The notes under the pieces: model-generated | Seen by the model: the letters and a program-made list of their open reading frames with translations, nothing else | The model's database searches: none | Told to the model about the DNA's origin: nothing | Made by a program: the position numbers and the translations under genes | Part shown: positions 13,523 through 54,438 of the stretch, piece after piece | Layout of the letters: the number at the start of each line of letters is the position of its first letter | Numbering within the stretch: position 1 is the stretch's first letter | From: Myxococcota bacterium | GTDB taxonomy: Bacteria > Myxococcota_A > SURF-8 | Reading direction: 5' to 3' | Length of the DNA: 64,000 bases | NCBI GenBank assembly: GCA_963674735.2 | Contig: CAXXQS010000001.1 | Coordinates: forward strand, 2,592,001-2,656,000

Positions 13523-13595
13523 GTAGGTCGGACAAATTCTTTGTCCGACAATCATAATCTCCCTTTGTGTCGGACAGAAAATCTGTCCGACCTAC
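13523..13595. repeat. GTAG-type REP doublet (REPIN-like), class A
   Basis: GTAGGTCGGACA..TGTCCGAC-spacer-GTCGGACA..TGTCCGACCTAC, 73 bp; inverted copy at 25473-25545 with 2 mismatches. Confidence 0.9.
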
Positions 13596-19064: not shown

Positions 19065-19508
19065 ATGACAACCATCCGCGAAATTTTGAACGATAAAGGA
19101 CCGATTGTCGTTTCGATCCAGGAAAACAGCCATCTGCTCGAAGCCATCGACCGCCTCAACGAATTCTCCATCGGTTGCCTGGTGGTGATGAACGCCCAGG
19201 GACGCATGACCGGCGTGCTGACCGAACGCGACATTTTGCGCAACCTGCACCGCTACGGCAAAACCCTCGACGAGGTGCCCGTCTCCGATGTCATGAACCG
19301 CATCGTCTACACCGGCCGCCTCGACGACAACCTGGACGCGGTGATGGCGACCATGACGGAACGGCGCTTTCGCCATCTGCCGGTGGTCGATCACAACGAG
19401 CTGGTCGGTTTGATTTCCATCGGCGACGTGGTCAAACGGCTCAGCCATGAGCACGCCCGCGAAAACGCCATTCTGAAGGACTACATCAGCAGTCCCTACC
19501 CGGCGTAA
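19065..19508 (+). CDS. CBS-pair protein
   Basis: GVLTERDI, RHLPVVD..LVGLISIGDVVK; AGGAGG RBS. Confidence 0.9.
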   Translation: MTTIREILNDKGPIVVSIQENSHLLEAIDRLNEFSIGCLVVMNAQGRMTGVLTERDILRNLHRYGKTLDEVPVSDVMNRIVYTGRLDDNLDAVMATMTERRFRHLPVVDHNELVGLISIGDVVKRLSHEHARENAILKDYISSPYPA

Positions 19509-19580: not shown

Positions 19581-19655
19581 GTAGGATGGGCAACAAGTTG
19601 CCCATCGCGTCGTCAAGTAAAGCTTCAAGAAGATGGGCAACAAGTTGCCCATCCT
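19581..19655. repeat. GTAG-type REP doublet (class B), right arm interrupted by IS110
   Basis: GTAGGATGGGCAACAAGTTGCCCATC..GATGGGCAACAAGTTGCCCATCCT; the missing terminal AC lies at 20832-20833, after the IS. Confidence 0.85.
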
Positions 19656-19669
19656 TGTATTATCCCTTT

Positions 19670-19870
19670 CAAGCGACTGTCATCGTTTGTGATGATAAGA
19701 TGAAACGACCTCCCGTAGCAAGCGGGAGGCCGTGGTGGGCGGCGAGATCGTCCCATCCTGGGGCCTGATGAGCCCGTTTTGTAGCCGGATCCGCCGTCCG
19801 TTTCGTCCGGGAAAACCCGAACAGTCGCAGGGGCCATTGTAATCGAAATGAGCCCGTATTGGCAAGGAAG
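19670..19870 (+). ncRNA. Putative IS110 bridge RNA
   Basis: Structured non-coding left end. Target-like guide tcccatcct (19751-59) and gtag (19781-84); donor-like guide acagtcgc (19821-28) and caag (19863-66). Boundaries are approximate. Confidence 0.8.
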
Positions 19871-19878
19871 GGTGCGCC

Positions 19879-20814
19879 ATGAAGAAATGGATCGGGATCG
19901 ACGTCAGCAAAGCCGTTTTCGATGTCGCCGTCGACGGCGAAAGCACGTGCGTCCGCTACGCTTACACCAAAGCCGGCATGACACGCTTCGTCCGTTCGTT
20001 GAAGCGGATCGAGGTGGAGGGCGTCGTGATGGAAGCCACCGGCGGCTACGAACGGGAGCTGTGCAAACGTCTTCAGAAAGCGGGTTGGCCGGTGGCGGTG
20101 GTCAATCCCCGGCGCATCCGGGATTATGCCCGCGCCGTCGGCGTGATGGCGAAAACGGATCGACTCGATGCGGGCATCATCGCACGCTACGCAGCCGCCA
20201 TGCGTCCCGCACCGAACGAAACGCTCGGCGAAACCGCCCTCCTGTTAAAAGCCCTGTCTTCACGGAGGCGGCAGCTGGTCGCCATGCGCACGATGGAGAA
20301 AAACCGCACCGAACACGTGGGCGATCGGACGATCGGACAAAGCCTGCACCGCATTCTGGAGGTGATCGAACGGGAAATCGAGCGGCTGGATCGGGCCATC
20401 GCGGCGGCCATTGCATCGGATCGGGAGCGCAGCGACCGGGCCGCGCGGCTCCAAACGATGCCGGGCGTCGGCGCGTGCACGGCGAATCTTCTGGTGACGG
20501 ATCTGCCGGAGCTGGGGATCTACAACCGGCGGCAGATCGCGGCGTTGATCGGCGTGGCGCCCATGAATCGGGACAGCGGAACGTTTCGGGGTAAACGCAT
20601 GACCGGCGGCGGTCGTCATCGCCTGCGCACGGCGCTCTACATGCCGACGCTGGTGGCGATTCAACACAACCCGGTGATTCGCGGACACTACCAGCGGCTG
20701 GTCGGACGCGGCAAACCGAAGATGACGGCGGTGGTGGCCTGCATGCGAAAATTGGTCCTCATTCTCAACACGATGATGCGGAAAAACGAAGCCTGGAACC
20801 CGAATTTCGCTTGA
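19879..20814 (+). CDS. IS110-family DEDD recombinase/transposase
   Basis: IGIDVSK (D), VMEATG (E), AKTDRLDA (DD), TMPGVG, RDSG (putative catalytic Ser), VACMRKL; 311 aa, intact. Confidence 0.96.
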   Translation: MKKWIGIDVSKAVFDVAVDGESTCVRYAYTKAGMTRFVRSLKRIEVEGVVMEATGGYERELCKRLQKAGWPVAVVNPRRIRDYARAVGVMAKTDRLDAGIIARYAAAMRPAPNETLGETALLLKALSSRRRQLVAMRTMEKNRTEHVGDRTIGQSLHRILEVIEREIERLDRAIAAAIASDRERSDRAARLQTMPGVGACTANLLVTDLPELGIYNRRQIAALIGVAPMNRDSGTFRGKRMTGGGRHRLRTALYMPTLVAIQHNPVIRGHYQRLVGRGKPKMTAVVACMRKLVLILNTMMRKNEAWNPNFA

Positions 20815-20816
20815 CA
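20811..20816 (+). promoter_or_regulatory. -35 half of the IS110 circle-junction promoter
   Basis: Joining the ends gives TTGACA-17 nt-TATTAT (the -10 is at 19658-63). Confidence 0.8.
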
Positions 20817-20892
20817 CCGATAACAGTCGCTACTTTTTTTTCTACGATCAACAAACCCAGTACCCGCCGGAAACGCACTCCGACACCCCCCT

Positions 20893-21672
20893 TCACCCCA
20901 TAAACTGCTCGCGCGCGACCGCGGCCAGCAGCAACACCAGAACCGCAATCGTCAAGGGGCGGATGATCCGTTCGCCGTTGCGCAGCACCAGACGCGACCC
21001 GAGCAGGTTGCCCGCAATACCGCCGCAAGCCGCGTAAATCGCCAGGGGAAACAGCACTTTGCCGTTGAGCAGAAAAATCGTTAGCGAACCGAGGTTGGAG
21101 GCCAGGTTGGCCAGGCGGGCATTGGCGGCCGCCGTCACCAGGTCGAAACGCAGAAGCAAGTAGAACGCAATCGCCATAAACGCCCCGGTGCCGGGACCGA
21201 AAAAGCCGTCGTAGCCGCCGATCAACCAGCCGATGCCGAAAGCCGCCAGCCATTGCCCCCGACGCGACAAGCGCAGCCCCGGCCCCCGCAACCAGCGGTC
21301 ACGAAACCAGAATGCCGCCGCCACGATGGGCACCAGCACCAGCAGCACCTGGCGCACGATCTCCGGGGGAGTCAACAGCGCCAGCTTGGCCCCCAAGGAC
21401 GCCCCAATCAGCGCCCCACCTGCCGCCAGCAAACCGAGCACCAGTTGCACGCGTCCCGCGCGGGCATAGCGGACGACCGCCGTCACCGTTCCCAGGCTGG
21501 ACGAGAATTTGTTGGTGGCCAGCGCCGTGTGCGGCGGCAGACCGAAAGCGAAATAAGCCGGTAAGCTGATCAAGCCGCCCCCGCCCGCAATCGAATCGAC
21601 AAATCCGGCCAGAAAGACCAGCCCCGTCAGCGAGATGATTTGAAGCGTGGAAAAATCGAGCGTTTCATACAT
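20893..21672 (-). CDS. TauE/SafE (TSUP) family membrane transporter
   Basis: AGFVDSIAGGGGLI, ALATNK, GYDGFFGPGTG. Confidence 0.92.
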   Translation of the reverse strand: MYETLDFSTLQIISLTGLVFLAGFVDSIAGGGGLISLPAYFAFGLPPHTALATNKFSSSLGTVTAVVRYARAGRVQLVLGLLAAGGALIGASLGAKLALLTPPEIVRQVLLVLVPIVAAAFWFRDRWLRGPGLRLSRRGQWLAAFGIGWLIGGYDGFFGPGTGAFMAIAFYLLLRFDLVTAAANARLANLASNLGSLTIFLLNGKVLFPLAIYAACGGIAGNLLGSRLVLRNGERIIRPLTIAVLVLLLAAVAREQFMG

Positions 21673-25472: not shown

Positions 25473-25545
25473 GTAGGTCGGACAGATCTTCTGTCCGACA
25501 CAAAGGGAGATTATAATTGTCGGACAAAGAATTTGTCCGACCTAC
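25473..25545. repeat. GTAG-type REP doublet, class A (second copy)
   Basis: 71/73 identical to the reverse complement of 13523-13595; an 8-bp tandem TATTGTAG overlaps its left edge. Confidence 0.9.
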
Positions 25546-46398: not shown

Positions 46399-49300
46399 AT
46401 GCGGATCTTCACTCTGTTTGGATTGATTCTACATTTCGGAATAACGGTCTCGCTTTACGCCGCCCCCCTTGTCTCCGAAACGGATGTATCGCTCACCACC
46501 CTCATCGCCGCACACCCGACGGTCTTCGGCCCGAAAACCCGACTGCTGGCCGACCGGCGCTCCGGCAATGCGTTGCAAGTGACGCTATCGCAGGATTTTC
46601 TTCCCCTGACCGCCGACCTGGCACGGGTGGAACAGGTGGTTCAGCTTCTGGCGACCCGAATGGGCGACGCCACACAACTGCATGTCTTCATCGACACCCC
46701 GAACGGTCCGCGCGCACTGGACGACTTCGTCAAACAACCAAGCCCGACGACATTCGTCAATCCGCCTGCGCCGCTACCCTCGCTGGAGGCCGTCCCCGAA
46801 CAGGCGGCCTTTCCGTTCTCCGGCGGTTTGAGCGGCAAACGCATCGTCGTGAGCCCCGGCCACGGCTGGTATTGGGTGGAAAGTCTGGGTGATTGGTATA
46901 CCCAACGCCCGCTGATCAACGGCATCATCGAGGATTTCACCAACTGGCGCATGGCCGCGCACGTGATCACCGCCTTCGAGCACGCTGGGGCGGAGGTGTA
47001 TTCCTGCCGCGAACGCGATAGGAACACCACGGAAATCATCGTGGACGACGAAACCGGCGCTCCTGCCTACCAGGACGGCCCGGAATGGCAAACCAGCGAT
47101 TACACCGGCTTTGTCGGTGACACCTACCGTTTCACCTACACCTCGTCCGAAGACGGCGCGTGGGCCTGGTGGCGGCCCGACTTCCCGAAAACCGACGACT
47201 ACGCGGTTTACCTGGCGTTCCGATCCGGGGAAAACCGCGTCACCGATGCTCACTACATCATTCGCCACGCAGGCGGCGACAGCCGGATTACCGTCAACCA
47301 GGAAATCAACAGCCTGCGCTGGCTGTACATCGGCACCTACCGTTTCCGAGAAGGAAGCGCATACGGCGAGGGCGTGGCCCTCTCCCCCCAATCGGACCAG
47401 GACGGCGCGGTGATTGCCGATGCGGTCAAATTCGGTGGCGGCATGGGCAGCCTTTCACGCGATGGCGCGACCTCGAACAAACCGCGCTGGGAAGAAGCCG
47501 CCCGCTACTGGGTGGAATTCGTGGGCGCACCCCCGGAAGCGTATAATTCCACGATGGAAGACAACTCCGGCGACGTCACCGCCCGTCCCAAATACGCCAA
47601 CTGGCAAGGAGCCGACGCCTACATCTCGCTGCACTCCAACGCCGCCGGGAGCCCCAACCTGGGCTACGGCACCGATACCTTCATGTACAACGGCGACGCC
47701 ACCGAAGGCAGCGAAACCTGGCGCGGCCTCGTCCACGAGCACGTGGTGACGGCCATTCGCTCGGAATGGGATCCGACTTGGACCGACCGTGGCGTTAAAT
47801 CCGCCAATTTCGGTGAGTTACGCGAGCTGGCCAGCATGCCCGGCTGCCTGATCGAAGTCGGTTTTCACGACACCGAATACGACTCGGTTTTCCTGCGGCG
47901 GCCCCCCTTCCGCGAAACGGTCGCCCGCGCCATCGTGAAAGCCGCTTATGACTTCTTCGACGTCCCCGCCCCGCTCTACCCGCTCCCGGTACGAAATCTG
48001 CGCGCCCTGCCGGCGACTCCGGGCGTCTTGAGGCTGATGTGGGAACCGACCTCCGACCGTACCTGGGGCACCGAAACGGCTCCCGATCATTACCGGATCT
48101 ATTTATCGGAAGGCGGACAGGGCTTCGATAACGGCCTCGTGACCACAGCCGAAACACACTATGATTTCAACGATCTCGAAGCGGGTTCGCTCTACGCCTT
48201 CAAAGTTGCGGCGGTCAACGCGGGCGGCGAAAGCCTGGCCTCCGAACCGGTCGCCGTGCGATTGCAAGGCTCCGACTTTCCGCAGATCCTGATCGTCAAC
48301 GGCTTCAACCGCCTCGACCGCTCGGTTCAGGAAGAGGAAAACACGGGCGAGTACGGTCTGATTCACGCGGCCGACATCGCGGCAGGCGGCGACTATTATT
48401 TTGTCTCCGCTTCCGATGAAGCGGTCGAGCAAGGATTGGTGGATCTCACGCCTTTCGATCTGGTGGACTGGATCGCGGGTGAAGAAGCCATGCTTCCCGG
48501 CGAACCGGCGACCTATCGCAGCTTTTCCTCAGCCGCGCGCACTCAGTTGCAAACCTATCTGGCGGCGGGCGGCGCACTGTTCGTCAGCGGCTCCGAAATC
48601 GGCTGGGATATGGCGGTCTCGGCGGAAGGCGAAGCCGATTACCTGGCGTTTTATACCGACACGCTCAAAGCCGCCTATGTGGCCGACGACGCCGACACCT
48701 ACTCTTTGTCCGGAACGGTGGACGGTTTGTTCGATGGCATGACCTTCGGTTTCGACGACGGCAGCCACGGCATCTACGATGTGGACTGGCCCGACGTGAT
48801 TTCGCCAGCCACCGATAGCGGCGCGACCCTCTGTCTCACCTACGAAACACCCTCCAAGGGGGCGGGAATCTGCGCCCCCGACCTCGTCTATCTGGGCATC
48901 CCCTTCGAAACGCTCCAACCGCCAGACACCCGGCGGGAAGTCATGCAGCGCATTCTGGGCCACTTGACCAGTGAAGGGAACCCCCCGGTGGTCCCCGATG
49001 GCGACGCCGACAGCGAACTGGATGGCGACTGGGAGTACGACACCGACTTCGAGGCTTGGCCCGACGGCGATTTCGAATACACGGAATTCGTCGAAACCGA
49101 CGCTAAAACCCCAATCGACGACTTCCCGCTGCCGGATGGCGACGTCGGCCCCAACGACGAAACGGATCCGCCGGACGGCGATGTCAACGGCGAAACCGAC
49201 GGCGATGGCACCGACGAACCGACCACGCCGTCCTCCTGCCTCCCCGGTTACAGTTTACAGGGAGACCGTTGCGTGCAGGATCAGGCAGAGGGTTCGGATG

Positions 49301-49413
49301 GCTGCCGAAACACGGGCGGAAACGGTCCCGATATCGGGTTGGCTTTGTTATTGGCACTCATGGTTTGGCTGCGCCGACGATCGAATTCAAAAAGCGACTC
49401 TTGTTTTTCATAA
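46399..49413 (+). CDS. N-acetylmuramoyl-L-alanine amidase (Amidase_3) with golvesin-like insert, FN3 domain and MYXO-CTERM-like anchor
   Basis: SPGHG, E, SLHSNA, LIEVGF Zn motifs; W..IG.Y.F..VIADAVKF insert; YAFKVAAVNAGGES; C-terminal GC..GG..hydrophobic-RRR. Confidence 0.82.
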   Translation: MRIFTLFGLILHFGITVSLYAAPLVSETDVSLTTLIAAHPTVFGPKTRLLADRRSGNALQVTLSQDFLPLTADLARVEQVVQLLATRMGDATQLHVFIDTPNGPRALDDFVKQPSPTTFVNPPAPLPSLEAVPEQAAFPFSGGLSGKRIVVSPGHGWYWVESLGDWYTQRPLINGIIEDFTNWRMAAHVITAFEHAGAEVYSCRERDRNTTEIIVDDETGAPAYQDGPEWQTSDYTGFVGDTYRFTYTSSEDGAWAWWRPDFPKTDDYAVYLAFRSGENRVTDAHYIIRHAGGDSRITVNQEINSLRWLYIGTYRFREGSAYGEGVALSPQSDQDGAVIADAVKFGGGMGSLSRDGATSNKPRWEEAARYWVEFVGAPPEAYNSTMEDNSGDVTARPKYANWQGADAYISLHSNAAGSPNLGYGTDTFMYNGDATEGSETWRGLVHEHVVTAIRSEWDPTWTDRGVKSANFGELRELASMPGCLIEVGFHDTEYDSVFLRRPPFRETVARAIVKAAYDFFDVPAPLYPLPVRNLRALPATPGVLRLMWEPTSDRTWGTETAPDHYRIYLSEGGQGFDNGLVTTAETHYDFNDLEAGSLYAFKVAAVNAGGESLASEPVAVRLQGSDFPQILIVNGFNRLDRSVQEEENTGEYGLIHAADIAAGGDYYFVSASDEAVEQGLVDLTPFDLVDWIAGEEAMLPGEPATYRSFSSAARTQLQTYLAAGGALFVSGSEIGWDMAVSAEGEADYLAFYTDTLKAAYVADDADTYSLSGTVDGLFDGMTFGFDDGSHGIYDVDWPDVISPATDSGATLCLTYETPSKGAGICAPDLVYLGIPFETLQPPDTRREVMQRILGHLTSEGNPPVVPDGDADSELDGDWEYDTDFEAWPDGDFEYTEFVETDAKTPIDDFPLPDGDVGPNDETDPPDGDVNGETDGDGTDEPTTPSSCLPGYSLQGDRCVQDQAEGSDGCRNTGGNGPDIGLALLLALMVWLRRRSNSKSDSCFS

Positions 49414-49560: not shown

Positions 49561-52500
49561 ATGCACACGATAAGTTTATCGATGGGGCGTCGGACCCTAT
49601 GGGTCCTTCTGTTGGCGCTGCTTCTTTTCGCAACCGCCGCCTGCAGCGATAGTAACAATCAGGCTGTGCCGGGCGACAACGAGGTGGCCACCGACGGCGA
49701 TACCGGTCCAATCGACGATGAATGTACGCTCGACAGCGAGTGCATCGACACGTACGGAAGCGGCTACGTGTGCTTCCTGGGCGCCTGCGTGACACAGAAC
49801 AGTTGCGCCGACACGTCCCTGGGCGACTGCGCCTTCGATAACGATTGCAATGCCGGTGAATATTGCGACGACACCTGCACCTGCACCGAATATGTCGACA
49901 CCGACGGCGACGACCCCTCCGATGGCGACGGCGGTGACGACAATTGGGATTGCAACAAGCAGCCCTGTATCACGATCAGCCCCAGCCGACTCAACTTCGG
50001 AGCCGTGGTGCTCAACGAATCCGGCCTGCAAACCTTCAACATCCGCAACGACGGCGGCGACGTGCTGGAAATCATCTCGATGGAATTCAGCAACGACACC
50101 AGCCCCGACTACGACTGGCAAGCCCGCCCCCAACTTCCCCTGCGCCTATCTCCCGGCGAATCTCAAGGTTACTCGATCCTGCTCACGCCAACCGATCCGG
50201 GTAAAGACCTCGGCAAAGTGGAAATCGTCTGCAACGATTTGAGCCGCACCGCCAATAACGGACAACCAGTGGTGATTCTGGAAAGCGAAGAAAAGGGCAC
50301 CTCCGAGATTTTCGTCTCGCCGACGGAATACGATTTCGGCGAAGTCGAGGTCGGCAGCCAGGAAATCCCCCTGCAGATCACCCTCAAAAACGTGCGCCCC
50401 GACACCCAGGATGAAGTGAACAAAACCCTGAGTATCCTCGGTATTACACTCGATCCGCCACCCTCCCAGCAGCCGAATTTCCGTTTACAGGAGAACCTGA
50501 GCGACAGCATCCCGATTTACCTCGGACCCGAAAACACCGCCTTCTTCTTCGTGTATTACCGGCCGCAAACGGAAGGCGTCCACGACGTGCGGATCGTCAT
50601 CACGCATGATGCCGATACCAACCCGTACTCCCCTCCCAGCCCGAACAACCAAGTGTATGTGGATCTGGAAGGCAGCGGGGTACAACCCTGCCTGGAAGTC
50701 GAGCCCAACCCCATCGATTTCGGAAAAATCACCGTCGGCCAGACCACCTCGAAGGAAGTCGCTTTACGCGCGGCCTGCGGCGGCACGATCGAAATCTGCG
50801 GCATCGAATGGCAGACCCCACCCGACGAGGATGAATTGAAGCTCGACGTCCGCGGCGGCGTGGCCAGCGCCATCATTCCGCCCAATCAATATCAAACATT
50901 CCGCGTGGAGGCATCTCCACAAACGTTGGGTTTCCAGCAATACTTCATCAACATCTGCAGCAACGACATCGACGAACCGACCCAGAAAATACCGGTCCAA
51001 TTTGAAGGCGTCCAGAGCCTGATCGTGGTGCAGCCCACCGTGATCGACTTCGGCCGGGTGTTGCTCGAATCCACCGATTCCGAAACCCTCACCGTTACAA
51101 ACATGGGCACCGGCCAACTCGATATCACCAGTATCACGGTCACCAACCCCACCGAAGACGCGCAAGCGTTTACGCTCGATCCGGTCGACGCGCAGTCCCT
51201 GCCCGTTACTTTGGACTATACCGCATCGGAGACATTCACCATCCGTTACACGCCGCGCCATCAGCAGGAACTGTTCGTCCATGAAGGAAAACTGACCATC
51301 CACACCAACAACCCCACCACACCGCAGTACGACGTTACCGTGCGTGGAACGGCTGTGTGGCCCTGGTGTCAATTCTCCGTGGTCGGCGATCCCAACTTCG
51401 TCGACACGATCGATTTCGGTGAAGTGGCCATCGGCACCTCGAAAACCAACAAACTGCGTGTCACCAATGAAGGCTCTTACAAATGCGAAGTTCCGCAGGT
51501 GAAGGTCATCTCGGGCACCAGCGAGTTTTACACCGTCTGGCCACCGAGCAACACGGGCATCGAACCCGGCGACCACTTCGATTTCGACATCACTTATGAA
51601 CCGCAGCTTTACACCGGTCAACACAACGCGGTATTGCAGGCGCAAACCAACGATTTTCGGCCCGACCATGCCGAGGCCGATTTCAACCTTCATGGTTCGG
51701 GCGTTAACCCTGTGATCGCCGTATCACCGCCGACCACCTTGGCGTCTCCCCACGATTTCGGCGAAGTCGAAAACAACACCTGCAAGGGACCGGTGGAAAT
51801 CCGGGTGCAGAACATCGGCTTCGGAACCCTGGTCATCGATGAAATCGGGATCGCACTGATGAGCGTCGAAGAGGCCTGGCCGATGGTCAACTTCGATCCA
51901 CCCCTGGTGGAATCGGTTGAAATCGCCCCCAATTCCAGCCAGGAACCCAACAAAGAATGGGTATTCACGGTGGATTTCTGCCCCTATCATTACCTCTTCC
52001 AGCACAAGCTTCACCTGTGGATCCACTCCAACGACCCGGTCAACGAGTTGACTTGGGTGTATTTCGAAGGCACGGGCGTGCCCTGCCAGGACGAGCATTA
52101 CACCATCGACCCCGAAGATCCCTGCGGGTACTACTGCTTCCGGCCCACCCCGGAATCCCAGGTGCCGTATGAAATCTGCGACGGCTACGACAACGATTGC
52201 GACGGAAACACCGATGAAGACTTCCCCATCGGCGTGCAGTGCGACGGCGTCGGCGCCTGCGGGCTGGGCACCTATGAGTGCGCGGGCGATCGTTTCTCGG
52301 TGCGCTGCTCCACCGACGTGGGCGGCTCGCAGTTCGTCTACAACGAGGAAGTGTGCGACACCCTCGACAACGATTGCGACGGAGAAACCGACGAAAACTT
52401 CCTCGTCGGCGAAATCTGCGTCGGCGAAGGCGAATGCGGTCTCGGTGAATGGCGCTGTAAAACGGCTTCCGAAGCCTACTGCAACGCCAACGACAACGGG

Positions 52501-54438
52501 GCAGCGGACGACCAATGCGATGGACTGGACAACGACTGCGATGGCGAAGTCGACGAAGATCCTTATTTCGTCGCTTACAAAGGCGATCCGGCTCCCCGCT
52601 GCAACGATAACGGCCACTGCATCGGCGACTTGTGCACCGGTCAGGGCGGTTGCGGCACGGAAGGCTTCGGCTTCATCGAATGCGCTTCGCCCCTGACCAT
52701 CGACGACAAATACTGGGTGCAGTGTTCCTCCGATCCGCACGGCAGCACCAGCTCGAACTCCTATGAAGTCTGCAACGACCAGGACGACGACTGCGATAGC
52801 GAGACCGATGAGGATTATTTCACCGGTCGTTACGATCAGGAACCCCATCTGGTGGGAACTCAATGCCAAGGCCAGGGCGTTTGCGGCTTCGGCGTATGGG
52901 AATGCGACCCGCGCAACTTCCTGCAGGTTATCTGCTCGACCGACATCGGCGGCAGCGACTATATCTTCCAACAGGAAACCTGCGACGGCTTCGATAACGA
53001 TTGCGACGGCATGACCGACGAGGATTTCAGCATCTACGATCCGCAAGGCAACCCGGTATCCTGTTCGGGAACGGGCGAATGCGGACAAGGCGTATGGGAA
53101 TGCCACCCCAACGGCACCACCCGCCGCTGTTCCAGCGATCCGGGCGGCAGCGACTACATCTACTTCCAGGATTTCTGCGACGGACTGGATAACGATTGCG
53201 ACGGGGAAACCGACGAAAGCTACAACATCAACGATCCCTGCATCGGAATCGGCCAATGCGGCTCCGGTGTCTGGGAATGCGACACCACCACGACGGTGCG
53301 CTGCTCCACCAACCCCGGCGGATCCGAAAACATGGCCGAGCCGGAATTATGCGATAACCTGGACAACAACTGCAACGGTCTCACCGACGATTTCATGCAG
53401 GTCGGCCAACCCTGCGAAGGTTTGGGAGAATGCGGACCGGGCATTTACGAGTGTAAAAACTTAAACGAGCAACGCTGCTCCACCGACTATTCCGGCAGCC
53501 AGTACCAAGGCTCCCCCGACATCTGCGATGGGTTGGACAACAACTGCAACGGCCAGACGGATGAAGATTACGGTGCAGGCCAAACCTGTATCGGTATCGG
53601 CGTCTGCGGGGAAGTGCCGGGCGAGTGGGAGTGCGCCAGCACAAACTCGCGCCGCTGCTCCACCATGCCGGGCGGCAGCGCAGACCGCAGTTCGGAAGAA
53701 ATCTGCAACGAGAAGGATGACGATTGCAATGGGTACGTCGATGAGACCTTCGACTTCTCGACCGATCCCAGCAACTGCGGCGGATGCAACATCGACTGTG
53801 AAGCCCCCAACGGCGTACCCGACTGCGACAATGGTCGGTGTGTCGTCGCGGGATGTTCATCCGGTTATTACGACATCGATGGCGAAGCCGATAATGGTTG
53901 CGAATGCCTCGTGGATTCCTCCGACAGCGGAGGCGTCGGAAATTCTTGCGGGAATTCCGTGCAGACCAACCCCCCGATCCTGATCGACAACAACCACCAG
54001 TATGCGCTGGTATCTGGAAACATTGCCCCGCTGACCGATGCCGATTGGTTCCAGTTTCAAGCGCAGGACGGCCCGGAATCGGGCCCGAACTACTGTGACG
54101 AATTCTTCGTATCGGTTCAATTCACGAACAACCCGGACGCCGAATTCGCCTTCGACATCTACCTGAACGACTGCGCGGAGATGGTCTGCACCGGTGAAAC
54201 GAACTACAATTTCGCCACCGACGACAAATTCCCTCCCGTTACGGCGGATGACAAAGCCTGGGGCCGCGGCCATTGCCCGTGCAAACCGACGGCGCAAAGT
54301 GTCACCGGGTTCAACAATTGCGAAACGCAGAATCTGACCTTCTTCGTAAAGGTCTACCGAGCGCTATCGGCGGGCCAAAGCCCGACCTGCAGCACGTATG
54401 AACTGGAGGTATCCAACGGGCTATACAGCAGCCCGTAA
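49561..54438 (+). CDS. Giant Cys-rich surface lipoprotein: about 6 Ig-like (choice-of-anchor D/ASH-like) domains and 9 CDG.DNDCDG.TDE repeats
   Basis: Lipobox TAAC; repeated P...(D/N)FG.V domain starts; nine putative metal-binding (MopE-like) repeats; 1625 aa. Confidence 0.8.
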   Translation: MHTISLSMGRRTLWVLLLALLLFATAACSDSNNQAVPGDNEVATDGDTGPIDDECTLDSECIDTYGSGYVCFLGACVTQNSCADTSLGDCAFDNDCNAGEYCDDTCTCTEYVDTDGDDPSDGDGGDDNWDCNKQPCITISPSRLNFGAVVLNESGLQTFNIRNDGGDVLEIISMEFSNDTSPDYDWQARPQLPLRLSPGESQGYSILLTPTDPGKDLGKVEIVCNDLSRTANNGQPVVILESEEKGTSEIFVSPTEYDFGEVEVGSQEIPLQITLKNVRPDTQDEVNKTLSILGITLDPPPSQQPNFRLQENLSDSIPIYLGPENTAFFFVYYRPQTEGVHDVRIVITHDADTNPYSPPSPNNQVYVDLEGSGVQPCLEVEPNPIDFGKITVGQTTSKEVALRAACGGTIEICGIEWQTPPDEDELKLDVRGGVASAIIPPNQYQTFRVEASPQTLGFQQYFINICSNDIDEPTQKIPVQFEGVQSLIVVQPTVIDFGRVLLESTDSETLTVTNMGTGQLDITSITVTNPTEDAQAFTLDPVDAQSLPVTLDYTASETFTIRYTPRHQQELFVHEGKLTIHTNNPTTPQYDVTVRGTAVWPWCQFSVVGDPNFVDTIDFGEVAIGTSKTNKLRVTNEGSYKCEVPQVKVISGTSEFYTVWPPSNTGIEPGDHFDFDITYEPQLYTGQHNAVLQAQTNDFRPDHAEADFNLHGSGVNPVIAVSPPTTLASPHDFGEVENNTCKGPVEIRVQNIGFGTLVIDEIGIALMSVEEAWPMVNFDPPLVESVEIAPNSSQEPNKEWVFTVDFCPYHYLFQHKLHLWIHSNDPVNELTWVYFEGTGVPCQDEHYTIDPEDPCGYYCFRPTPESQVPYEICDGYDNDCDGNTDEDFPIGVQCDGVGACGLGTYECAGDRFSVRCSTDVGGSQFVYNEEVCDTLDNDCDGETDENFLVGEICVGEGECGLGEWRCKTASEAYCNANDNGAADDQCDGLDNDCDGEVDEDPYFVAYKGDPAPRCNDNGHCIGDLCTGQGGCGTEGFGFIECASPLTIDDKYWVQCSSDPHGSTSSNSYEVCNDQDDDCDSETDEDYFTGRYDQEPHLVGTQCQGQGVCGFGVWECDPRNFLQVICSTDIGGSDYIFQQETCDGFDNDCDGMTDEDFSIYDPQGNPVSCSGTGECGQGVWECHPNGTTRRCSSDPGGSDYIYFQDFCDGLDNDCDGETDESYNINDPCIGIGQCGSGVWECDTTTTVRCSTNPGGSENMAEPELCDNLDNNCNGLTDDFMQVGQPCEGLGECGPGIYECKNLNEQRCSTDYSGSQYQGSPDICDGLDNNCNGQTDEDYGAGQTCIGIGVCGEVPGEWECASTNSRRCSTMPGGSADRSSEEICNEKDDDCNGYVDETFDFSTDPSNCGGCNIDCEAPNGVPDCDNGRCVVAGCSSGYYDIDGEADNGCECLVDSSDSGGVGNSCGNSVQTNPPILIDNNHQYALVSGNIAPLTDADWFQFQAQDGPESGPNYCDEFFVSVQFTNNPDAEFAFDIYLNDCAEMVCTGETNYNFATDDKFPPVTADDKAWGRGHCPCKPTAQSVTGFNNCETQNLTFFVKVYRALSAGQSPTCSTYELEVSNGLYSSP

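Follow-up and report, generated by a model that had tools for sequence, protein, structure and literature searches.

Which kind of mobile element occupies the intergenic space where a CBS-domain gene (19065-19508) and a TauE/SafE gene (20893-21672, minus strand) converge with their 3′ ends, and how does it choose where to insert? The locus lies in a 64,000-nt stretch of a Myxococcota bacterium genome (GenBank GCA_963674735.2, contig CAXXQS010000001.1, positions 2,592,001 to 2,656,000, forward strand), referred to here as the window and numbered from its first letter. A first-pass annotation of this DNA had proposed an IS110-group bridge-recombinase element seated in its REP target, with the loop layout of the IS621 bridge RNA. 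That reading is supported by loops that match both target and donor, and we consider it very probable that 19656-20831 represents an IS110-group insertion sequence, complete and recently mobile, that works like IS621. Coordinates of its features are collected in Table 1.

Table 1 Features of the element and its target site (positions in the window)
Feature	Position	Strand	Details
Upstream partner REP hairpin GTAGGATGGGCAAC-AA-GTTGCCCATC	19581-19606		
Target REP hairpin GATGGGCAAC-AA-GTTGCCCATC	19632-19653	+	3′ arm gives left target CCCATC, 19648-19653
Core dinucleotide CT, target side	19654-19655	+	right target AC after element at 20832-20833; empty sites read ...CCCATC-CT-AC
Left end (LE)	19656-19878	+	223 nt, non-coding, encodes predicted bridge RNA
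-10 box TATTAT	19658-19663	+	would join -35 box only after circularisation
CAAGCGACTGT, exact inverted copy of circle junction ACAGTCGCTTG	19670-19680	+	at predicted transcript 5′ end
5′ stem-loop of predicted bridge RNA (CCUCCCG...CGGGAGG)	19705-19733	+	from left-end alignment and folding
Target-binding loop	19737-19799	+	base stem 19737-49/19788-99, bulged A 19746; upper stem 19761-64/19772-75
LTG CCCAUCCU	19752-19759	+	pairs 8/8 with left target
RTG GUAG	19781-19784	+	pairs 4/4 with CT-AC
Donor-binding loop	19815-19873	+	base stem 19815-18/19870-73; upper stem 19831-38/19847-55
LDG ACAGUCGC	19821-19828	+	pairs 8/8 with ACAGTCG-C
RDG AUUGGCAAG	19858-19866	+	7 donor bases paired, one G-T among them
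Recombinase gene	19879-20814	+	311 aa; DEDD RuvC-like domain residues 5-146, Tnp domain residues 189-272
-35 box TTGACA	20811-20816	+	overlaps TGA stop codon 20812-14; read from sequence
Right end (RE)	20815-20831	+	17 nt; sub-terminal ATA 20820-22, left donor ACAGTCG 20823-29, core CT 20830-31

A search of the 5.26-Mb, 3-contig genome with 19656-20831 (+ strand, 1176 bp) returned 8 places, each 100% identical across all 1176 bases, with zero substitutions over 8 × 1176 bases of element copies. The first-pass annotation had named other copies with different ends or targets as a point against itself; all eight have identical ends and sit between GATGGGCAACAAGTTGCCCATC-CT and AC, with the same 24-nt left flank, GATGGGCAACAAGTTGCCCATCCT. 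The base after the right-hand AC is T in seven copies and G in one, and beyond these limits the flanks are unrelated, except in two copies that share a further repeat. Because the common 24-nt left flank and AC give way to unrelated sequence farther out, the borders of the element are placed at 19656 and 20831. A second CT forms its last two bases (20830-31), and excision of 19656-20831 in silico restores GTTGCCCATC-CT-AC. Insertion uses this short shared CT core without target duplication, the 16 empty sites in the genome carrying a single CT and being scarless. The left end begins TGTATTAT (19656-63), with the right donor TGTAT at 19656-60 and sub-terminal TAT at 19661-63. Its 223 nt, the short right end of 17 nt and the ATA/TAT sub-terminal repeat are those of the IS110 group, which is delimited in PMC11208160 by a long left end, a short right end and a 2-3 bp sub-terminal repeat around the donor.

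The protein encoded between these ends contains hits to both Pfam domains of the family, PF01548 (79.5 bits, cut-off 29; residues 5-146) and PF02371 (68.2 bits, cut-off 21.3; residues 189-272). Over residues 4-300 it matches the solved structures of ISCro4 (9t56, E=3e-37) and IS621 (8wt6, E=1e-34). D8, E52, D94, D97 and S233-G234 stand opposite D11, E60, D102, D105 and S241-G242 of IS621, as counted along the alignment allowing two extra N-terminal residues in the chain, S233-G234 matching the conserved Ser-Gly of the Tnp loop; D11, E60, D102, D105 and S241 are the composite active site reported for IS621 (PMC11208158). The recombinase is a singleton in its 90% cluster, the nearest other protein being 64% identical. 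Matches at E≤1e-20 comprise 7944 of 8000 scored candidate proteins, and the recombinase family is therefore huge. Among 61 related genomes, nine including its own contain a match at E≤1e-30, with identities of 62% in G008 (8 copies), 59% in G001 (1 copy), 57% in G004 (1 copy) and 49-54% in G009 (several copies). The nearest named relatives are encoded in Gemmatimonadales, Terriglobia and Chloroflexota MAGs (43-46%), and the nearest plasmid-borne ones, from Nostoc, Sinorhizobium, Deinococcus and E. coli, reach ~42-44%.

How the element might recognize its site can be read from the left end. The first-pass annotation had listed four guide-like tracts there, tcccatcct, gtag, acagtcgc and caag, which lie at 19751-59, 19781-84, 19821-28 and 19863-66; the two intervening stems it described are the upper stems of Table 1, and a re-reading of the window sequence confirmed all of its sequence statements, on excision and ends as well as on tracts and stems. 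LTG is complementary to the target's bottom strand and RTG to its top strand, while LDG and a discontiguous RDG are complementary to the RE-LE junction: AU..GCAAG pairs with CT-TGTAT of the joined ends as CT-TG-T(G.T)-AT. The matches exceed chance: when the 223-nt left end was put through 200,000 mononucleotide shuffles, CCCATCCT occurred in 452 of them, ACAGTCGC in 735 and the two jointly in 1. For the left target, the earlier 8/9 match is better taken as an 8-nt guide, with U19751 in the position of the C-G-U linker of IS621; the 8-nt length is supported by sister elements, in which the target base opposite this U may be G, A or T.

The order of elements within each loop can be set beside that of IS621, using the nucleotides named in the text of PMC11208158. 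From 5′ to 3′ the target loop reads C-G-U (19749-51), LTG, G19760, a stem-loop (19761-75), G-U (19776-77), UUU (19778-80), GUAG and CC (19785-86), where the IS621 loop has linker C47-U49 (with G48 in syn), LTG A50-U58, linker U59, a stem-loop, linker G72-U73, RTG G77-G80 and handshake 81-82 (PMC11208158). The donor loop reads G-A (19819-20), LDG, A-G (19829-30), a stem-loop (19831-55), G-U (19856-57), A-U-[U-G]-G-C-A-A-G (19858-66) and G-A (19867-68); its IS621 counterpart consists of linker G121-G122, LDG A123-C130, linker A131-U132, a stem-loop, linker G155-U156, RDG A157-U158/C162-G165 with G161 on dT12 and U159-U160 flipped out, and handshake 166-167 (PMC11208158). At the handshake positions, G19867 is able to pair with target C19653, A19868 with target T19652 and C19785 with donor G20829; the second handshake base of the target loop, C19786, faces donor C20828, where no pairing is possible. 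The two loops agree with the IS621 scheme at almost every nucleotide, including their linkers, an RDG patterned A-U-(2 flipped)-G-C-A-A-G and the places of the handshake bases.

Comparative evidence supports the prediction that the left end encodes a bridge RNA with a 5′ hairpin followed by two internal-loop stems. The left ends of nine elements align well from ~19735 onward, and RNAalifold predicts two stems with internal loops in this region; upstream, every close relative has a hairpin at the position of 19705-33, unrelated in sequence. An RNA model (R1), built by writing the RNAalifold structure onto the trimmed alignment, found exactly the 8 copies and nothing else in the own genome; in a 151-genome sample of the phylum, 14 genomes had matches. 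Covariation was scored on 20 distinct R1 matches, aligned to the model. Standard pairs made up 93.4% of 530 cells in these 20 related left ends, against 73.4 ± 1.2% in shuffles; fitting the alignment to the model biases this score toward the structure, yet the margin is large. Changes on both sides were found in 24 of 28 pairs, none of 500 shuffles attained any of the five covariation measures, and sliding the partners by 1-3 columns left 28-51% paired. Folding energy over 19700-19878 is unremarkable (z=-0.68; 46 of 200 shuffles fold equally well). A search of Rfam returned no family at gathering score, the best hit being RF02234 sX15 on the opposite strand (23.5 bits against 55).

REPs are short imperfect palindromes that occur as many intergenic repeats, often together with a RAYT transposase flanked by copies. 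The target hairpin is a probable REP, and in this genome its 16-nt core GGGCAACAAGTTGCCC has 29 exact occurrences: 8 with the element, 11 empty and followed by ATCCTAC, and 10 with other tails (5 CTCCTAC, 2 CTCCTTC, 1 ATCCTAT, 1 ATCTTAC and 1 ATCGCG). The 11-mer GCCCATCCTAC is found without the element at 16 sites, against ~2.5 expected for a 5.26-Mb genome, all at the foot of the target hairpin or a close variant; an empty cognate target of this sequence lies on the minus strand at 19581-19591, within the upstream partner hairpin. A second REP family, GTCGGACAG-AAAATC-TGTCCGAC-CTAC, is present in 21 copies (GTCCGAC left arm), and further non-cognate sites comprise 3 GCCCGAC-CTAC and 6 GCCCCTC-CTAC. 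These non-cognate REPs share the core and right target with the cognate sites and differ in the left arm. Across the whole genome the element occupies 0 of the 30 non-cognate REPs (21 GTCCGAC, 3 GCCCGAC and 6 GCCCCTC, all before CTAC), compared with 8 of 24 cognate sites (Fisher p=0.0007). Two Y1_Tnp-like (RAYT-like) genes are bordered by inverted copies of the second family, GTCCGAC-CTAC; no RAYT-like gene was found in the genomic neighbourhood of the targeted family.

Sister genomes show the LTG changing together with the host REP variant, as judged from the sequences of guides and occupied sites. In the own genome (G000) all 8 targets are CCCATCCT and the LTG is CCCAUCCU, as at the single site in G001 (1/1). 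In G008 the LTG is CCCGACCU and all 8 targets are CCCGACCT, one of them with TC instead of AC on the right; G009 has the same LTG, with 5 of 6 targets CCCGACCT and the other ACGGACCT. The G004 element has LTG UCCGACCU and its single copy sits in ATCGACCT, a 6/8 match, while the neighbouring REP arm is TGTCCGAC. In Terriglobia, target ACCGCCCC(T) accompanies LTG ACCGCCCC in 3 of 5 copies, and the other two sites are one base off (variant b mismatch). Guide-target matching is imperfect in relatives, namely in the G004 copy, in one of the six G009 copies, in the G008 copy with TC and in Terriglobia variant b. For the donor loop, the closest four elements are not independent, because all share one LDG and donor. 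In this comparison two G000 copies that share the first 10 right-flank bases count as one printed row, and left out are the G052 copies (L024, L031), which are in tandem with one in-frame TAA and ambiguous ends, L014 (its left end contains a stretch of N), L016 (a contig starting at the element, without left flank) and L017, L018 and L025-L027 (partial or very distant).

Joining the two ends is predicted to reconstitute a near-consensus sigma-70 promoter across the circle junction, TTGACA-N17-TATTAT, with a spacer composed of 20817-20831 (15 nt) and 19656-57 (2 nt). Hexamers split in this way are also present at the ends of the G001, G004, G008, G009, Terriglobia and Gemmatimonadales elements. 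In the integrated state, a promoter scan recovered only TGGGCA-18-TATTAT, a 9/12 match. Weak expression from integrated copies has been reported for IS621 (PMC13626964), and by analogy the 9/12 promoter fits such weak expression here.

Near the predicted start of the transcript, the inverted copy of the circle junction adds a feature of its own. When this leader is included, the fold of 19668-19878 pairs 19673-80 with LDG in both the MFE and the centroid structure (z=-3.11; 0 of 200 shuffles), so that the MFE ties LDG to 19673-80 and does not leave it free. The junction copy is kept in G004, in G001 with one G-U, and weakly in G008; shuffles did as well as the donor mimic in 0/500 cases for G000, 1/500 for G004, 5/500 for G001 and 53/500 for G008. 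Among more distant left ends it is at chance in 15 (19 of the 20 left ends scored, 1 skipped for gaps). Because G000, G001, G004 and G008 share one LDG, the pairing is without covariation. Three readings of the copy at 19670-80 are conceivable: regulatory pairing specific to this clade, the vestige of a sub-terminal repeat, or chance conservation by descent. That the bridge RNA of this clade has a built-in switch, in which a 5′-end donor mimic (an exact 11-nt copy of the donor bottom strand) closes the donor loop, is highly doubtful as a model. The purine run AAGGAAGGG of the donor loop (19864-72) resembles a ribosome-binding site of the recombinase ORF; if the switch existed, the 3′ half of the donor loop would be the ribosome-binding site, and RNA folding, donor binding and translation would be coupled in cis. 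A separate observation is that the element, despite its IS110-group placement, has a 13/14 inverted repeat between 19672-85 and the right terminus (20818-31), which includes 19672-80 of the junction copy. As an alternative to the switch at the level of DNA, this repeat could be a second, inverted pseudo-donor site.

Taken together, these features suggest the following cycle. Occasional excision would yield a circle in which the right and left ends are joined and whose junction would build the strong sigma-70 promoter; transcription of the left end from this promoter would give a bridge RNA of ~200 nt and probably continue into the recombinase mRNA. The first internal loop of the RNA would pair with the REP target and the second with the circle junction (LDG ACAGUCGC with ACAGTCG-C, RDG AU..GCAAG with CT-TGTAT). 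A tetramer of the 311-aa DEDD/Ser recombinase, with S233 as the nucleophile, would then exchange strands at the shared CT, leaving the element inserted just 3′ of the REP hairpin without duplication.

A different account of site choice accepts a genuine IS110 copy and has the recombinase mainly read the REP hairpin, or hairpin and RNA together, in which case the loops would not be freely reprogrammable. We consider this somewhat unlikely. All 24 cognate sites, 8 occupied and 16 empty, stand at the foot of one hairpin, so sequence and structure are inseparable here, and the target stem-loop is described as a second specificity determinant in the ISPpu10 preprint (10.64898/2026.03.19.712850). 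Against it, REPs with an equally good hairpin and a CTAC tail preceded by another left arm are never used (0/30), and in sister genomes the LTG shifts together with the REP arm, which fits RNA reading of the arm. A contribution of the hairpin beside such RNA reading is possible. Another reading of the shared flank would make the hairpin GATGGGCAAC-AA-GTTGCCCATCCT part of a longer element that carries its own "REP". The left 24 nt are indeed identical in all 8 copies, but the same hairpin with CTAC occurs 16 times without the element and 29 exact hairpin cores exist overall, which refutes this, and the sister REP family flanks RAYT-like genes; we rejected the hairpin as part of the element and regard the idea as next to impossible.

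Whether the element still moves bears on how the eight copies are understood. The first-pass annotation had called it probably active, and its 8 identical copies, intact ORF and conserved catalytic residues agree; the element is real and probably active. Identical copies point to recent movement, which is not proof of present activity, and transcription, circle formation, catalysis and present-day activity are features we infer from the family. The copies could instead be relics of a past burst, immobile in this host through a lack of excision or through silencing by the leader or an antisense RNA, a view we hold to be distinctly unlikely. It would accord with the 16 cognate sites that are still empty, with the inefficient excision reported for IS621 (PMC13626964) and with the result that neither a circle junction nor an empty-site variant nor a transcript end was seen in assembled contigs from the three runs found to contain the stretch, all of them DNA-type and from one study, a kind of data that misses rare junctions. 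The absence of substitutions among the copies speaks against it, as do the intact ORF, catalytic residues and guides and the near-consensus split promoter. The element makes up a separate unitig of 1202 bases (19632-20833) whose word depth is above that of the flanks, a depth that is not a copy number.

Under the favoured reading of an IS621-like element, every feature of IS110-group bridge elements that can be tested by sequence is found at this locus. It is a reasonable candidate for a programmable recombinase, as the first-pass annotation had also proposed, a description that applies equally to thousands of catalogued orthologues. As a tool, it would be one more natural bridge recombinase, compact at 311 aa and with all of its guides readable. 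Its genome supplies a natural control, in which two REP families share the same core and right target and are separated only by the 8-nt left guide, and the sister genomes form a small natural reprogramming series, with the guide tracking the host REP variant. The picture of bridge recombinases drawn in 2024 is unchanged; the value of the locus is confirmatory, together with a clean annotation of 8 loci.

The closest known parallel is IS621 of Escherichia coli, described in 2024 by Durrant et al. (PMC11208160) and Hiraizumi et al. (PMC11208158; PDB 8wt6). Both have a two-domain DEDD + Ser recombinase, a long left and a short right end, a CT core, a REP target ending in C-CT-AC, the right donor TGTAT, an ATA/TAT sub-terminal repeat and a split sigma-70 promoter. 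The RNA, predicted here and described for IS621, has in both cases a 5′ hairpin together with loops for binding target and donor, and the two share a 4-nt RTG GUAG, an 8-nt LDG starting ACAGU, an RDG of the form A-U-(two flipped)-G-C-A-A-G, G as the first DBL handshake base and a bulged A in the stems. They differ in that the protein match is distant (E=1e-34) and the recombinase has 311 aa instead of 326 aa, and in that the LTG pairs over 8 nt here and 9 nt in IS621. The predicted RNA of the element also ends 5 nt before the start codon, with its 3′ stem overlapping a likely ribosome-binding site, and has an extra leader hairpin and the inverted junction copy at 19670-80. The different target specificity claimed in the first-pass annotation applies to the left target, GCCCATC-CT-AC here against ATCAGGC-CT-AC in IS621 (PMC11208160), and does not extend to the core and right target, which are the same; the left donor is ACAGTCG here and one ending in AT in IS621.

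ISCro4 (IS622; PDB 9t56, bioRxiv 10.1101/2025.05.14.653916), the best solved match (E=3e-37, residues 4-300), belongs to the same family with the same domain order; this orthologue, which comes from another host and was engineered as a tool, is likened to the element here by protein alone. ISPpu10 of Pseudomonas putida has all its insertions in identical intergenic repeats whose 5′ extension folds into a GC-rich stem-loop, according to its preprint (10.64898/2026.03.19.712850), which put a role of that hairpin to the test; the target described here likewise lies at the 3′ foot of a hairpin. Elements of the IS1111 group, with a seekRNA or bridge RNA in the right end, share the recombinase family and the RNA-guided logic, and are distinguished by a left end that is short, a right end that is long and sub-terminal inverted repeats of 7-17 bp (PMC11208160). 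With a left end of 223 nt and a right end of 17 nt, the element is therefore assigned to the IS110 group and not to IS1111. Since Durrant et al. have already predicted thousands of bridge RNAs across IS110 orthologues (PMC11208160), it represents a new case of an already known kind of bridge recombinase.

Searched against Rfam, the bridge-RNA locus at the left end of the IS110-group element gave a single near-match, below the gathering threshold, to sX15 (RF02234) on the opposite strand. Model R1, built from the bridge RNA, matched the sX15 locus of the Xanthomonas plasmid pXCV183 (L083), on the strand opposite sX15, with 54.9 bits (E=4.6e-13). Experimental detection has been reported for both sX15 and its complement asX7, along with 10 homologues in Stenotrophomonas (PMC3300014). 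Because R1 matches the strand opposite sX15 and both RNAs have been detected, asX7 looks like an IS110-type bridge RNA, with sX15 as its antisense. Among the titles and abstract openings of three papers on sX15 in Xanthomonas, none refers to a bridge RNA. Within the studied element, a promoter-like TTGCCA-18-TACAAT (10/12) faces into the bridge RNA in antisense orientation. Across the 1.7-kb region there are 4 such promoter-like sites, where shuffled sequences give 0.6 +/- 0.7.

Coordinates of the features described (window positions unless a contig or plasmid is named)
Feature	Position	Strand	Source
RF02234 sX15 near-match	19733-19865	minus, opposite bridge RNA	Rfam, 23.5 bits
R1 match at sX15 locus	L083 1897-2024 = pXCV183 116396-116523	minus	model R1
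Promoter-like site	19865-19836	minus	promoter scan
Purine run	19864-19872		
Inverted repeat, sub-terminal left / right terminus	19670-19685 / 20818-20831		
Second REP family, window	about 13523-13595; 25473-25545		
Second REP family, genome	C1:276646-277398; C2:349963-350609		
Right-flank repeat	C1:2103626-2103680; C1:317533-317587		
Right-flank repeat, variant	right of C2:304755		
1004-aa protein	46399-49413		
1625-aa protein	49561-54438		

The conserved purine run AAGGAAGGG comprises the right donor guide (RDG) core, the handshake guide and the 3′ strand of the donor-loop stem, and lies 6 nt ahead of the recombinase ATG, in a ribosome-binding-site-like position. Since it belongs both to the donor loop and to this position, RNA folding or recombinase binding could mask translation initiation of the recombinase.

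A related genome (G052) encodes an IS110 relative, 41% identical, in three tandem copies ~2.5-3.5 kb apart (L024, L031 and L035), each with one in-frame TAA. Their right target guide (RTG) appears lengthened to 7 nt, UAACAAG against CT-TGTTA. For the related element in another genome (G004), the left target guide (LTG) has as its cognate sequence a second REP family of the studied genome, GTCGGACAG..CTGTCCGAC-CTAC, which the studied element never uses. In the studied genome the 11-mer of this family occurs in 21 copies; the family is frequently arranged as inverted doublets, and copies flank two Y1_Tnp-like (RAYT-like) genes. The right flanks of two element copies share ~55 identical bases containing GGAGCGTGTCTCCGACGGGCTC, and a variant is found beside a third; the shared sequence represents a further family of short repeats next to the REPs.

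Elsewhere, the window encodes a protein with HYDIN/VesB-like Ig domains and MopE-type metal-binding motifs (1625 aa) and one combining Golvesin_C, Amidase_3 and fn3 (1004 aa); several ORFs of 500-950 aa have no Pfam or NCBIfam match.

At the ends of the studied element, a sub-terminal left segment and the right terminus form a 13/14 inverted repeat, within which 11 nt reproduce the circle junction exactly in inverted orientation. Such a repeat is out of the ordinary in the IS110 group, whose sub-terminal repeats are described as no longer than 2-3 bp (PMC11208160).
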